A program made the translations under genes and the position numbers. DNA of 63,522 nucleotides, counting the filler, from Reticulomyxa filosa (lineage: Eukaryota; Protista; Foraminifera): NCBI GenBank assembly GCA_000512085.1. It is 19 parts of 19 records of this genome, joined end to end, with 100 filler letters (N's around TTAATTAATTAA, not from the genome) between each part and the next. Parts side by side here need not be neighbours in the genome. Positions count along the whole stretch, not along the records: positions 1 to 8,651 come from ASPP01022453.1; positions 8,752 to 11,812 come from ASPP01006532.1; positions 11,913 to 20,660 come from ASPP01009523.1; positions 20,761 to 21,915 come from ASPP01038166.1; positions 22,016 to 24,822 come from ASPP01001721.1; positions 24,923 to 27,730 come from ASPP01028261.1; positions 27,831 to 30,505 come from ASPP01000666.1; positions 30,606 to 37,213 come from ASPP01004739.1; 11 more parts are not named here. The stretch is one strand, 5' to 3'. Below, one piece after another: positions 2,268 to 63,097 of this stretch (the stretch's first letter is position 1; each line of letters opens with the position of its first letter). The notes under the pieces are model-generated. The model made no database searches. It was not told the origin of the DNA and was given only the letters and a program-made list of their open reading frames with translations.

Positions 2268-5200
2268 ATGCTTATGATAAATGGTGTGAAGAAGAAAATT
2301 CCTCCACATTTACAAAAACGAGGACATATCCAAAAGAAGAAGAAAAAGCAAGCGAAGCAGGCGAATTCAAAAGTTGAGTGCAGCTTAGAAATGCAATTGT
2401 ACCCGATTTTTTGTTTTATTTTTGTGGTTGTTCAACACACACATATATGGAAAAAAAAAAAAAAAAATTGGCTCTGAAACAAGGAACTTGAGGAAGAAGG
2501 AACAGAAGAGGACAACATTGGAGAGAAGAAAACAGCAGCAACAATACAAGCAATTGCCAAACAAAACTTGAAATCAGATTCACAGAACAATGTGGACGAC
2601 AATGAAGCAAATGAAAACAACGATCACATCGACACTGGGGAAGAGAAAGAGAGAGAGAAAGATAAAGAAAAAGACAAAGACAAAGATAAAGAAGAGGATG
2701 GAGTGAGTTCTGACACAAGTGCGGAATGGTTTGATGGAAATGAAGATTCTGACAGCAAAGCATATGGCGCCGGTAAAATTATTAATTATTTAATAATTTT
2801 TTTTTTTTAATAAAAAAAAAAAAAAAAAAGTGCCCGCAATATCGCATAATTCTTTTTTTTTTTTTTTTTTTTTTTTTTTTCTTCCTTCCCTTCCCCTTCT
2901 TTTTCCCCAAACCCTCCTTCCCTCCAAGTCCATTTGCATATTATATACTTTTACATATTTGAAGGAGGATATTTATGTGTACGCGTGGGCGATTTGCTTA
3001 ATAACCGGTATTTAGTGCAGAAGAAATTAGGGTGGGGTCATTTTTCCACAGTTTGGCTTGCCACTGACGAGTTGAGTTTTTTGATTTGATTTGATTTGAT
3101 TTGATTTGTAATAATCTGAAATAATATATACACTGGAAAGTATATATTGACCAAACTTTTTTTTTTTTAAAAAAAAAAAAAAAACAAACAAACAAACGGG
3201 GGGGGTGTATAGATTGGCACACTGTTATGTGGCCCTAAAAATCCAAAAGTCTGCTCCACATTATTACGAAGCTGCGTTGGATGAAATCAAGCTGCTAAGT
3301 GACGCACGAGAGCAAAACGACAAAACCAATAACGTTGTACAAATGCTCGACTCGTTCACTGTCAAAGCATCCAATGGAACACGTTCAGTTTTTTTTTTTT
3401 GTAAATGTCCTCCTTTCCTATTGTGATGCATGTGTGTATGTTATTATTATTATTATTCCACGCACACACACATATATATATATACATATATATATATATA
3501 CAAATCAATAAATATCATTCTCGTCACAGATGTCGTATTTGTGTTTGAGGTATTGGGCGAGAATTTGCTGGACTTCATCAAGGCGTACAACTATCGAGGC
3601 TTACCTTTGGCCGTGGTCAAAAAATTACAAAAGAAGTACTGCACGGGCTGCATGTGCTGCATCAACATTGCCAAATTATACACACGGACTTGAAACCTGA
3701 AAATGTCTTGTTCACTCGCGTGGAACCCATTCGCCAAGAAGACTTGGAAAGGAGCAAACTCTACGCACGTCGAAACCAATTTGTTACGTCAGTCCATGTC
3801 TTCGTGCTTTCTACTATCACACTATTATCATTATATTATATTATATTATATTATATTATATTATATTATATTATATTGTATTAGTTGCACATAATTCTGT
3901 GCTTCATGTTCAAAAATATCTCAATTGTGTTTACATCTTTTTTTGCCCTTTTATACTCAATGTATTGTACTTCCTCGTTTCACGAGAAAACAAATGGACA
4001 AATGAATAAATGAATACATGAATGTATATATGTAAATAAACGCATACTGACATACAAAAAAAAAAAAAAAAAAATGATAGCAAAGGCAACTTAATCGCTT
4101 CGAAAAAGAACTGACAAGTGGGAAAAAGCTCTCCAAAACACAAAAAAAAAACAAGCGACAAAAAATACAAGAACTGAGATCTAAAATCGAAGCCGTGGAA
4201 CTGCAAATACAAAACAGCAATGGTAACGCTCCTTCTCATTCCACATCCAATGCCCATAGCAACAATAATCCCACAAAGACAACAGAGTCCACATCTACCA
4301 ATGACAATGACGACAACAAGGAACGATCTTGCCAGCCTCAGAATAAAAATGGTCCCGCAGACACTCAAAACGATACAAAAAATGCAAATGACAATAAGAA
4401 ACACTGGAAAGAACCAGAAAAGCCTTTAAAGCCATTATTTGAAGTTAAGCGAGAGAGAGAGAGAGAGACATACTTTTCGACAAGAGCACATAGTGATGTC
4501 TAAACTATAATAATAATTCAATTGCGACAATGACTCACTTCTCAGGCTCTAATTTTATTACTTTTAAAAAATGTTTGCAGTTTGTCAGATATATGTATAT
4601 ATGTATATATGTACATGTATATGTATGCATATGTGTATATAATAACAGTATATCCACGGATGGAACATTGTGCAAAACTCGCAGTATACTCCGGAAGAAA
4701 TCAAGCAAATGACTCCAGTTGTTAAAATCGCCGATTTGGGAAATGCTTGTTGGACACACAAACATTTCACAGATGATATCACTACAAGACAATACAGGGC
4801 CCCTGAGGCGATTATAGTTATATACATATACATATATATATAATTTTTTTTTTTTTTTTTTTGCAAGTCTTATTATTAAAATTTCAAGCAAACAAACAAA
4901 CAAACAAAAATTACATAATTATCATCCTTTTGTTTATGTATAAACAATTGCAATAACAGGGACAAGACTACGACACTGGAGTGGACGTTTGGTCACATGC
5001 ATGCATGATGTTCGAGTTAGTCACGGGCGATTACTTGTTTGACCCCAAAGCAGATGAGAAAGAAAGATATACTCGTGATGAAGATCACTTGGCATTGATT
5101 GCAGAATTGTGCGGCAAATTTCCGTTGGAAATGACCCAACATGGGAAACATCACAAAGAGTACTTTGACAGCAAAGGAAACTTTCGACATATTCAAAAAC

Positions 5201-6141
5201 TAGACTTTTGGCCGCTTTACGATGTATTAAAAGAGAAATATAAAATCCAAAAAGCCGATGCCAAGTCATTTGCCGAGTTTTTAAGTCTAATGTTACAAGT
5301 CGATCCCAACAAACGATGCTCGGCTGGAGAAATGCTGAAACATCCTTGGTTGAACATCACGGAGCGAGATAAACGACATTGTCTGATAGCCGAGCGTCGT
5401 TGGTGGGCCAGTGGTGGACGTCCTCATCGCGACACCAATGCCATCCATTCAGACGACGAGGAAGACCAGTCTTTGGTTGTGCCTGTGAGCACTGACGAAG
5501 AAGAAGAAGAAGACGAAGACAACAATGACAACGCAAACGAAGACGACCAACGTGGTGCCCGCGAACGAGAGTGCTCACCTGAAGGGGTTCATAATGTCAA
5601 TCGTCAAAGTCATAGCGCTCCTCCGCCTTCTTGGCATCGGTATATTAAAGATATCTCTTGGTATCAGCAATTTGAAAAACCGGAAGAAGAAGAATTCGAT
5701 TATGAAACCATAAAACAACGAATGCTAAAACTAAAAACCCAACGCAATACTCATGATAACGACGACGATGATGATAATGATGATGATGATGCGGATGAAG
5801 AAAACAGTGAGCAATCAAATGCCAATACAAGTGATGACAATGAAAGCGGAAATGAAGAAAATGATTTTCAAACGCAATCGAACACACGTAAACCACAAAC
5901 AAACGCCAAAAAAACTACTGCTAAATCTGATGAATCATTTGAAGATGAGGAGTTGATACAGTCAAATACATCACAAAATAACAGTCCTTGCACCACGCAG
6001 TTGAGCTCTTTTTTTTTTTCCCCTTCTCTTCCCTCCATTAAGATAAAGCAGAATAAGAATTTTAAAGTTGACAACTCATTAAAAAAAAAACAAAAAACGG
6101 TGCAAATAAACAATGGGTGGTTCAAAACTGGCAAGCATTAA
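2268..6141 (+). CDS. SRPK: SR-protein kinase (SRPK family), at least 8 exons, acidic C-terminal tail
   Basis: Spliced motifs: [77 protein letters not shown], spacer insert, [61 protein letters not shown]. Introns 2373-2483, 2773-2964, 3071-3212, 3383-3529, 3783-4080, 4444-4648 and 4817-4959 are all phase-consistent. One A is missing at about 3620. 3' end uncertain. Confidence 0.95.
3832..3877. repeat. (ATATT)n microsatellite in SRPK intron
   Basis: About 9 tandem ATATT units read directly. Confidence 0.9.
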
Positions 6142-60984: not shown

Positions 60985-61940
60985 TTTTTACAAGTTTTAT
61001 GGTCAATATCTTAAGTTTTACTTGCTTTTCTCTTCAAAATTTTTTTGCTTGCTTTTTTTCCCCTTTAAAACGAAGTTTTAGCAATTTGAGCCAGTTCAAA
61101 ATTTCTTTGGAAAAAAAAATTGTTGGGTCATGTTCCATTTATTTTCACAAGATTAATTGTCAGACTTTGCAACGAAATTTTCTACGAATGCATCGGATTT
61201 GGCTCAAAACTGAATGCAAAAGTTGTGATGTACTGTTTGCAACAAAAAAAAACTTTTTGATGAAAGACGTTGCAAAAATTGGTCCTCGTGGCAACGTCCG
61301 AACAGAAAATTTTTTTATTGGGAAGTGTTTTCCAACACCAACTTTATAAAAAGTCATCAATTTATCTCTTGTTTTGTTTGAATCTATTTCTCACGCCAAA
61401 GAAATTTTAATAAATCAGGCCACTTACGAGCAGAAAAAACCAAAACAAACAAAGAGGATAAACCATCAATGTGGAATGCTAGTGGAGTTGGAATCAGAAA
61501 AAATGTGGACTCTGTAACGACAAAAAATAACAGCCACTGTTCTGTCAACATCTCAATATGCAAAGATTTATTCCATCGTATGTTTGACAAAAGCAGGTGA
61601 GGGAAGAGAGGTTGCAAACTAACACTCTTTAGCAACGTTTTTGTTTTTTTATATCTCTCCTTTTTAGGTTGTTCACTCAAAACAGTTCGTGCATTCTGCA
61701 ACAGAGATGAAATTTTTCCATAGTGTGTTTGATTATTTCCAAATATTAGTCAACATAAGACATAATTCTAAAGGTTTGCTTTTGCTGTAATTTTAAAATC
61801 ATTCTGAAAGTTGAGAAAGTAAATATTTTCTCAGATTCAAAGCGCAAAAATAGCAAAAAATTTGCTTGTCAGAAACGAAGGATAAACTTCCTCTTTAAAA
61901 GGGTCAAAATCGTCAGAAGAGAAATAAATTTATTAAATTA

Positions 61941-63097
61941 ATGTCTCGTCTTGCCGAGAATAAATCAGGAGGAAATACTTATCAAGATGAAACAACTCAA
62001 CAATTACAACAATTAGCCCAAAATATGGAAAAAATCACTCAAATGAATGAGTTAAAACAGCAGCAAGCGCATGAAGCGAAGAGATTAACCTTTGAAAACA
62101 TTGGTTTAGAAAACATATCCGTAAGTCAATTAAAAGAAATGTTTGGGAAAACTCGATTGGTAATTTTGTGTGGACCTCAAACGAGAGCACATGAAATTGG
62201 ATGCGAACTACAAAAAATTATGCGTTTAAAAGATTTTTGCGAAATTGGAAAATCAGGTAGAAATGTTACATTGGAAAATTCGGCCAAGAAATTTCTGGAA
62301 ATTTCTGTGTCTACGTTTGATGGATGTAAACAGATTTTTATTCAATATATCAAATCGGATCTCATGTACTGTCTTGCAGTCACGGAATGGGGGCATCATC
62401 AATAGGTGTATTTTTAAGTGAATTAATAAGGATATTGAGAATAAGTGAAGCAATAAAGCAAGTACAAATGATAAGAATAGGAAGTGCAGGAGGGATAGGG
62501 GTTGAAGCGGGTAGCATTGTAGTTACATCTCATATTGTAAATCCAATCACTTTGAAATCAGAATGGACATATTATTCATGTGGTAATTGTATCACTCAAC
62601 CATGTACATTCGATGGCAATATATCCGAACAACTATATTTTATCGCAAAAAACAAGCAAATCCCTGTTTTCCTCGGTAAGACAATGACCACTGAGACTTA
62701 TTATGAAGGACAAGCCAGATTGGATGGAGCACTTTGTACCTATACTCAAGAAGCCAAGCTTGAATGGCTTACCAAACTATATAAACAAGGAGTTCGAAAC
62801 TTTGAAATGGAAGTTGTGCCTTCTCTCTCTGTCTTTCCCATTTGTAACATTTGACAGTAATTCAACTCTTTTGCAATATAGGGCGATGTACTTTCTGGGA
62901 TGTGCACTTACAACGAAATTCCATGCGCAATGTTATGCGTTGCCTATTTAGACCGCTTGGAAATGGATACTACTCCAAGTAAATATACAAAACAAGAGCT
63001 GGACAGTTGGATGCAACGCTGTGTTGACGTTGTTGTCACATATACCAAAAAACATCTTTCTTCAAAAAAAAAAAAATCTAAACCACAGACATCTTAA
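61941..63097 (+). CDS. UPP1: Uridine phosphorylase (eukaryotic UPP1 type)
   Basis: LCGPQTRA, TDFYSIYQIGSHVLSCSHGMG (after a missing A at about 62329), IRIGSAGGIG, YYEGQARLDGA, GVRNFEME|GDVL, LCVAYLDRL. Intron 62813-62881. Confidence 0.92.

Follow-up and report, generated by a model that had tools for sequence, protein, structure and literature searches.

Two 5' splice-site classes

The introns placed in a 63,522-nucleotide window of genomic DNA from the foraminiferan Reticulomyxa filosa (assembly GCA_000512085.1) begin with two kinds of 5' splice site (donor), and the kind used goes with the last base of the preceding exon. Exons ending in G appear as a rule to be followed by an ordinary GT donor (class I), and exons ending in A, C or T by a donor of the form GTT(R)(A)G(T) (class II), whose conserved downstream signal sits one base deeper in the intron. 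From sequence and modelled pairing we consider it somewhat probable that class II donors are read by a U1 small nuclear RNA (snRNA) helix slid by one base, the cut remaining before GT. The window consists of short contigs with N spacers between them, and all results come from its DNA and from homologous proteins. In donor strings a slash marks the exon-intron boundary; the last exon base is -1 and the first intron base +1.

Donors were divided by how they were placed: set A (n = 17) by homologous or conserved protein sequence, set B (n = 14) by reading frame together with a Markov model of coding and intron sequence to which GT and AG are the sole known signals ("motif-blind"). In set A, T stands at +3 in 12/12 donors after a non-G exon end and in 1/5 after G (Fisher p = 0.002); in both sets together the counts are 17/18 and 1/13 (p = 1.1e-6), bearing out the original prediction that the two classes are tied to the -1 base. 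T follows non-donor, non-G GT in 43/111 cases within introns (39%), 591/1406 in intergenic DNA (42%) and 195/605 in coding DNA (32%). Either G at -1 or T at +3 is present in 30/31 donors and in 382/860 decoy GTs. The class of GTT donors after a non-G base makes up 17 of the 31 placed introns; the "majority class" of the original prediction amounts to about half in this one window, with no majority beyond that.

The association survives several less favourable countings. With nine ambiguous sites included at their listed positions, T occupies +3 in 19/21 non-G and 3/19 G donors, and with all ambiguous sites scored against the rule the counts are 17/28 and 3/14 (p = 0.023). The raw motif-blind winners at the 21 introns placed other than by homology give 9/14 and 0/7 (p = 0.007). 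When a single intron was drawn from each of 14 genes, p fell below 0.05 in 1440 of the 1440 possible draws. GTT introns are also more often in phase 0 (13/17, against 4/13 of the others; p = 0.025), so placed that the last exon base is a third codon base, which is G in 19% of codons.

One-base displacement of the downstream signal

The conserved G of the intron start moves from +5 to +6 between the classes. G is found at +6 in 12/17 non-G GTT donors and 1/13 G/GT donors (p = 8e-4), and at +5 in 0/17 and 6/13, respectively (p = 0.003); decoy non-G GTT sites carry G at +6 in 7-20% of cases and at +5 in 21-30%. Among the 17 class II donors there is a purine at +4 in 13, A at +5 in 10, G at +6 in 12 and T at +7 in 11, while A occupies -1 in 11/17 and A or C occupies -2 in 14/17 (A in 13/17). 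Taking the majority base in each column gives A A / G T T A A G T, the usual MAG/GTRAGT slid by one base with T replacing the second G. Donors with C or T at -1 (six) match RAGT at +4 to +7 in 3-4 of 4 positions, those with A (eleven) in 0-4 (p = 0.016).

A T-rich background was rejected, because it does not displace the conserved G by one base, from +5 to +6; the background rates of T at +3 (32-42%) and of G at +6 in decoys rule it out as well. The offset that had been predicted is confirmed in this respect, and the two-class pattern and the one-base displacement are, as sequence patterns, real in this window. The exception at 51036, G/GTTTGT, is in the ordinary register, with G at +5 and T at +6.

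Position of the cut

Moving donor and acceptor together by one base leaves either the protein or its score unchanged in nine of the 12 homology-fixed GTT introns. The three discriminating junctions, at 3383 (His), 9225 (Met) and 18792 (Pro), all favour a GT..AG cut; GT..AG and the one-base slide score 132.1 and 124.1 at 3383, and 42.4 and 40.5 at 9225. G directly follows the acceptor AG in 9/17 GTT introns and in 6/13 of the rest, which is no difference. That the cut itself is shifted, with the G staying in the exon and an intron of the form TT...AGN, is scarcely credible given these junctions and the lack of a difference after the acceptor, even though the slide is neutral in most of the homology-fixed cases.

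U1 pairing and a proposed mechanism

Pairing was modelled with the human U1 end (taken from a table in PMC4856993, without pseudouridine) and fixed-register energies. In this model, pairing is better in the shifted register for 17/17 GTT donors, for 0/14 other donors and for 50/238 decoy non-G GTT sites, so that the shifted register proposed in the original prediction is the favoured one. Real GTT donors outscore decoys when the register is shifted (p = 2e-8), with no such advantage when it is ordinary (p = 0.40).

In class II, the U1 snRNA helix would move into the intron by one position, with the cut staying before GT. U1 C9 would pair with G and A7 with U in both classes (on G/GT in one, on /GTT in the other), the +1 G of the intron would replace the missing exon G, and U1 C8 would face a mismatched U. 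After U1 departs, U5 and U6 would set the cut at the only GT, and U6 would probably pair with G at +6 and U at +7 too, leaving a single U bulged. Where the intron side is weak, A at -1 appears to compensate, in the manner of ordinary donors with a one-base offset, and the A-rich exon end of the GTT class resembles the usual MA/G moved along with the signal.

Several observations weigh against a slid U1 helix as a general mode of donor recognition. Shifted pairing to standard U1 is weak in the model, averaging -1.4 kcal/mol where class I has -6.7, and standard U1 alone may therefore not suffice; the U1 end used is human and lacks pseudouridine. The A-rich exon end is equally explicable as pairing with the U5 loop. 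The +6 G is missing in 5/17 GTT donors. In a bulge (+2/+3) register, G at -1 would keep its pairing with U1 C9 while a single U bulges out; G is rare at -1 among GTT donors (1/18, that one in the ordinary register), but with an exon background of about 21% the deficit is not clear. The non-G donor at 36624, T/GTGAGT, is firmly placed in the ordinary register; there are also candidate non-G GTA donors at 15268, 16714 and 42524, and counting them in lowers the association to 17/21 against 1/13 (p = 5e-5). Junctions were placed by homology and reading frame alone, and a genome-wide share is not derivable from one window with 31 donors. Bare motif counts across the window are not raised over shuffles (15 against 13.1, 28 against 34.6 and 4 against 6.8), although an absence of window-wide enrichment is expected with only about 40 introns in 62 kb. 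A genome-wide figure counts on the other side, in favour of the proposal, though with reservations: Table S4 of PMC11347168 classes 6,244 of 50,607 annotated R. filosa introns as major (12%), 29,850 as major-like and 11,851 as non-canonical, and among 11 rows chosen from it the major share is 44-90% in Plasmodiophora, Tetrahymena, Dictyostelium, Plasmodium and human; however, it is equally low, 10-17%, in three Entamoeba species, Thecamonas and Symbiodinium, and the 12% is confounded by poor annotation (23% non-canonical).

Alternative explanations

The shift could be real but need a changed U1, either in the form of an additional U1 gene or through alteration of the only U1 where it faces intron +1, which would pair with GTTRAGT without a mismatch, as in the co-evolution described for Entamoeba; we hold this to be unlikely, yet a serious candidate. 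The modelled energy of the GTT class, -1.4 kcal/mol with standard U1, improves to -5.1 with a one-base variant, and the area under the curve for 31 donors against 860 decoys is 0.75 with standard U1 in both registers, 0.82-0.85 with one altered U1 and 0.90 with two U1s. The variants were picked after the motif had been seen, however, and the gain is a fit and not a test. Non-G GTRAG donors, more than half in human (PMC11732430), are 1/31 here, a count in favour of a changed U1. The preprint that provides the precedent of a co-evolved U1 (bioRxiv 10.1101/2022.06.08.495308) also describes several lineages with atypical donors that keep an unchanged U1. An Rfam search of the window returned no snRNA. 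Instead of U1, the pattern might be set at the U5/U6 step, with G/GT as a U5-loop class and GTT as a U6 class whose ACAGA helix is moved one base and whose +3 U is bulged. A split between exon-strong and intron-strong donors with compensation between -1 and +5 is general (PMC11732430), out-of-register U6 pairing is possible at one human site (PMC11162779), G at -1 and G at +6 are mutually exclusive in the window, and A at -2 (13/17) fits a U-rich U5 loop. Yet the known intron-strong class, NN/GURAG, has G at +5, found in 0/17 GTT donors here, and the constant T at +3 is left unexplained by this step itself, whereas a U1 shift explains it through the A7-U pair. We judge an origin at the U5/U6 step improbable.

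That the pattern is an artefact, produced by wrongly placed junctions, intron starts rich in T and a sample of limited size, seems more doubtful still. Junctions were placed from DNA and proteins in an assembly with homopolymer frameshifts, the scans were centred on the coordinates of the original prediction, the coding model was trained on intervals near the junctions that we drew ourselves, and the bare motif is not enriched across the window (15 against 13.1 expected). Against this, 17 donors were fixed without use of a donor motif, several of them through proteins 82-92% identical that run ungapped across the junctions, the background rates are 32-42% for T at +3 and 7-20% for G at +6, and the association stays significant in the worst-case recount and in the one-per-gene draws. 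Other origins were tried and dropped. An all-against-all blastn of 30 introns (lengths 61-205) gave only poly-A/T and microsatellite matches, and a mobile-intron (introner) origin was rejected. A uniform Entamoeba-type GUUUGU donor fits only 1/31 donors (51036), and membership of the non-G donors in the U6 class NN/GURAG fails as well, a purine at +3 with G at +5 occurring in 1/18 (36624).

Comparison with known systems

The slid U1 helix that we favour has its closest counterpart in the human +1 shifted-register donors (Roca and Krainer 2009, as cited in PMC4856993, PMC11162779 and PMC9311317), which likewise place the consensus one base into the intron, cut before GT and slide the U1 helix by one position. 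Validated non-canonical U1 registers of all kinds amount to 1.5% of 201,541 human sites, and single bulges at +2/+3 to about 90 (PMC4856993). The shifted register is thus rare in humans, whereas in this R. filosa window the displaced form makes up 17/31 donors, is tied to the missing exon G and nearly replaces non-G GTRAG. The role of U1 was shown experimentally in human and is modelled here; on that model the GTT class would function as the human shifted register does, in roughly half of the introns. A donor reading mode rare in humans is, to judge from the sequence, likely to be routine in R. filosa.

Other systems share single features. The AG/GU (U5) and NN/GURAG (U6) classes (PMC11732430) resemble the two classes here in depending on the exon end, in a ratio of about 1:1 and in trading exon for intron strength; their intron-strong class is in the ordinary register, whereas the R. 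filosa class has T at +3, G at +6 and no G at +5 (0/17). Entamoeba GUUUGU donors (bioRxiv 10.1101/2022.06.08.495308) also have T at +3 as a rule, and the "major" share of introns is very low in Entamoeba as well (10-17%, Table S4 of PMC11347168). The Entamoeba donors form a single uniform class with G at +5 in intron-poor genomes, and dependence on -1 is not described in the available portion of that preprint. R. filosa differs in having two classes and a +4 position that is mostly purine.

Minor (U12-type) introns start with GTATCCTT or ATATCCTT. No such start, nor one of the GTATCC type, is found in the 31 donors, and a minor-intron identity was discarded; the likeness is confined to one point, a second donor class independent of the exon G. 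Table S7 of PMC11347168 reports no minor snRNAs found for R. filosa. For the foraminiferan Globobulimina, the PMC6783311 supplement gives the GT dinucleotide alone at nirK junctions. A literature search on Reticulomyxa, foraminiferan and rhizarian splice sites returned no description of such a pattern; the 2014 R. filosa genome paper, known to us from reference lists, could contain a donor logo.

Placement of introns

For homology placement, all in-frame combinations of a donor and an acceptor lying no more than 21-36 bases from the predicted ends were scored against homologous proteins, with the donor motif unused. The panels comprised 5-10 TM9SF proteins of 44 matches, 16 SRPK and 10 ALDH proteins of 120 listed each, and 44 vWA proteins of 150 listed. 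Fifteen donors were fixed in this way. Set A adds to them the donor at 62813, settled by the contiguity of its two exons on one solved chain, and that at 29766, where the spacing of the P-loop motif GxxxxGKS was kept. Close relatives are ungapped across the junctions that they cover (three ALDH proteins with 313-315 of 342 residues identical, and a TM9SF protein with 279 of 316). Two exons of the window are 100% identical to deposited R. filosa proteins (P0001 and P0165). In set B, 11 of the 14 donors are the only available pair or win the motif-blind comparison by at least 1.7; the weaker three are 34528 (margin 0.5, every candidate T/GTT), 23073 (margin 0.8) and 47691 (at a contig end, without an acceptor). 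Set B is not fully independent, because the coding model was trained on intervals that we drew near these junctions. SRPK homologs were unable to fix the donors at 2373 or 3783, and vWA homologs that at 9471. A motif-blind gene finder recovered many donors, together with noise, and missed the AT-rich genes of 38777-43299.

All 30 donor strings of the original prediction were found in place, those at 51036, 22446 and 15268 on the minus strand, which it had omitted. Their placement is of unequal quality. Sixteen are fixed by homology or conserved motifs (2773, 3071, 3383, 4817, 8965, 17104, 17418, 17788, 18229, 18792, 29766, 49947, 50443, 50806, 51036 and 62813) and seven are supported, either by frame and the motif-blind model (2373, 4444, 8095, 12862, 34528 and 36624) or by position before a contig end (47691); six are ambiguous (3783, 57252, 30395, 34361, 22446 and 15268) and one, 45844, is doubtful. 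Of the exceptions to the rule that had been named, 51036 and 36624 are firm, 22446 and 15268 are ambiguous, and 45844 is the doubtful site: joining 45844(+) to its obvious acceptor yields an intron of 47 bases and a dead end of 12 residues, while a minus-strand open reading frame (ORF) with donor 45913, G/GTAAAC, splices in frame. Protein atlas and Pfam searches at 45844 found no family, and the strand is tentative. The main counts leave out nine ambiguous sites (3783, 12420, 15268, 22446, 30395, 34361, 57252, 58382 and 60027), as well as 45844, the degenerate region 38777-43299 and contig-end donors. Eight donors beyond the original list were added (773, 1232, 1736, 9225, 9471, 9858, 23073 and 45913), and 8/8 obey the rule. 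The placed introns are collected in Table 1.

Table 1. Introns in the window, with donor type and the basis of placement (scores are best against next best; class I, ordinary donor after G)
Position	Strand	Gene	Donor	Placement
713..773	-	BTK-motif gene	class I G/GTGTGA	only in-frame GT..AG pair; new
1122..1232	-		class I G/GTAAAT	only in-frame pair; new
1663..1736	-		class I G/GTAGCA	only in-frame pair; new
2373..2483	+	SRPK-type kinase	shifted A/GTTGAGT	motif-blind best by 1.7; homologs uninformative
2773..2964	+	SRPK	class I G/GTAAAA	homology
3071..3212	+	SRPK	shifted A/GTTGAGT	sole in-frame GY..AG pair within 24 bases
3383..3529	+	SRPK	shifted C/GTTCAGT	homology 132.1 vs 112.8; junction-spanning His puts cut before GT
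3783..4080	+	SRPK	ambiguous: T/GTTACGT or nearby GTC or GTG	outside main counts
4444..4648	+	SRPK	shifted A/GTTAAGC	sole in-frame GY..AG pair within 30 bases; motif-blind best
4817..4959	+	SRPK	GTT donor A/GTTATA	homology 283 vs 263
7949..8095	-	SPRY-LisH gene	GTT donor A/GTTTCA	motif-blind best by 5.5
8965..9068	+	vWA-domain gene	shifted C/GTTACGT	homology 129.9 vs 115.6
9225..9324	+	vWA-domain gene	shifted A/GTTTTGT	homology 42.4 vs 33.6; new
9471..9549	+		GTT donor A/GTTGATT, less certain	motif-blind best by 6.8; homologs uninformative; new
9858..9949	+		class I G/GTCAGA	motif-blind best by 1.7; new
12862..12973	+		class I G/GTAAGT	motif-blind best by 4.8
17104..17186	+	TM9SF, intron 1	shifted C/GTTAAGT	homology 138 vs 124
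17418..17546 (acceptor 17546 or 17549)	+	TM9SF, intron 2	shifted T/GTTAAGT	only in-frame donor
17788..17942	+	TM9SF, intron 3	class I G/GTACTC	homology
18229..18408	+	TM9SF, intron 4	class I G/GTATGT	homology 271 vs 230
18792..18887	+	TM9SF, intron 5	GTT donor A/GTTACT	homology 304 vs 257; present in deposited model P0001
22974..23073	-		class I G/GTAATG (near alternative T/GTTTAT)	motif-blind best by 0.8; new
29766..29920	+	G-alpha	class I G/GTGAGT	GxxxxGKS spacing kept; motif-blind model preferred 29770 by 1.8
34528..34602	+	WD40 gene	shifted T/GTTAAGT	motif-blind best by 0.5; 3/3 candidates T/GTT
36624..36789	+		exception, non-G, ordinary register T/GTGAGT	motif-blind best by 3.5; alternative likewise T/GTG
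45763..45913	-		class I G/GTAAAC, likely instead of 45844(+)	in-frame splice of minus-strand ORF; strand tentative; new
47647..47691	-	cysteine-desulfurase-type gene	class I G/GTAACC	intron leaves contig
49879..49947	-	ALDH	GTT donor A/GTTAAT	homology; read through in deposited P0165
50352..50443	-	ALDH	shifted T/GTTAAGA	homology 286 vs 270
50729..50806	-	ALDH	shifted A/GTTTTGA	homology 243 vs 205
50949..51036	-	ALDH	exception G/GTTTGT, ordinary register	only in-frame pair
57252..57366	+		ambiguous A/GTTTTGT (alternatives A/GTTTTA, A/GTGCAG)	outside main counts
62813..62881	+	uridine phosphorylase	shifted A/GTTGTG	exons match one solved chain: residues 128-268, then from 271 at exon residue 3

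In the 30 introns of sets A and B, the acceptors have no pyrimidine tract. A accounts for 45% and C for 11% of the 20 bases leading up to the final triplet, which are often poly-A. The base before the acceptor AG is T in 15, C in 7, A in 7 and G in 1, and intron positions +9 to +28 are 47% T.

Gene models and other features

The vWA donor at 8965 is missed by the window's own deposited model and by three R. filosa paralog models (P0285, P0286, P0288 and P0289). The three paralogs read into the intron at this position with V-K, V-K and V-E after Ile, from which it follows that they have no G at -1 or +5 and may have G at +6, a point in favour of a shifted donor there. Of TM9SF, no more than the last 234 residues are included in the deposited model P0001. 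In a metagenome scan with an alignment of foraminiferan-type TM9SF, five loci were found, four of them with no room for introns by their coordinates. The fifth, L002, a contig that resembles foraminiferan DNA, has a single TM9SF intron with donor G/GTACGT (L002:1382-1457), about 7 codons from intron 3 of R. filosa, and lacks introns 1, 2, 4 and 5. Its intron fits class I and is uninformative on class II; the positions suggest that many introns were gained or lost between the two. Nothing matched when prokaryote genomes and viral contigs were scanned.

A possible 5' untranslated region intron with donor A/GTAAGT lies directly before the TM9SF start codon (16714-16769, +) and would be a counter-example if real. 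The region 38777-43299 (-) holds AT-rich degenerate gene copies with stops and frameshifts, with tentative intron-like starts A/GTTAAAA (40914), A/GTAAGT (42524), G/GTATGT (near 41659) and G/GTATAT (near 41109). Frameshifts also interrupt conserved genes (TM9SF, SRPK, WD40 and uridine phosphorylase) at 17995-18003, 3530-3640, 34880-34900, 62300-62335 and 53590-54640; these are likely assembly errors, that at 17995-18003 at least falling on an A-run. Pieces of a class-V aminotransferase of the cysteine-desulfurase type lie on separate contigs, C-terminal at 24294-24765 (-) and N-terminal at 47692-48153 (-), and are possibly one gene split by the assembly. An intron-free contig segment of about 65% GC (46507-47546, -) encodes a TonB-dependent receptor plug domain (PF07715) and looks like bacterial contamination of the assembly. 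The MFS/sugar transporter gene at 19873-20660 (+) is very AT-rich and intron-free, with codon use unlike that of its intron-rich neighbours.

Implications

Deposited models miss donors of the GTT class (P0165, P0285, P0286, P0288 and P0289), and foraminiferan annotations are therefore probably systematically wrong at such sites. Nearly all work on the handover of the donor from U1 to U5 and U6, and on the fixing of the cut, concerns a single consensus, and knowledge of the shifted register comes from a few human sites. Thousands of natural examples would be offered by an organism with this register at about half of its introns, and these could separate selection by U1 from selection by U5 and U6 and reveal the snRNA or protein change that permits the shift. 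More speculatively, and on present evidence doubtfully, Foraminifera and perhaps other protists may have rebuilt donor recognition on a G-(G/T)-T rule, in which a changed or second U1 and a movable U6 helix read half of the introns out of register, with cleavage by the catalytic core still at GT. If true, the major spliceosome would contain a second donor code of genome-wide reach.

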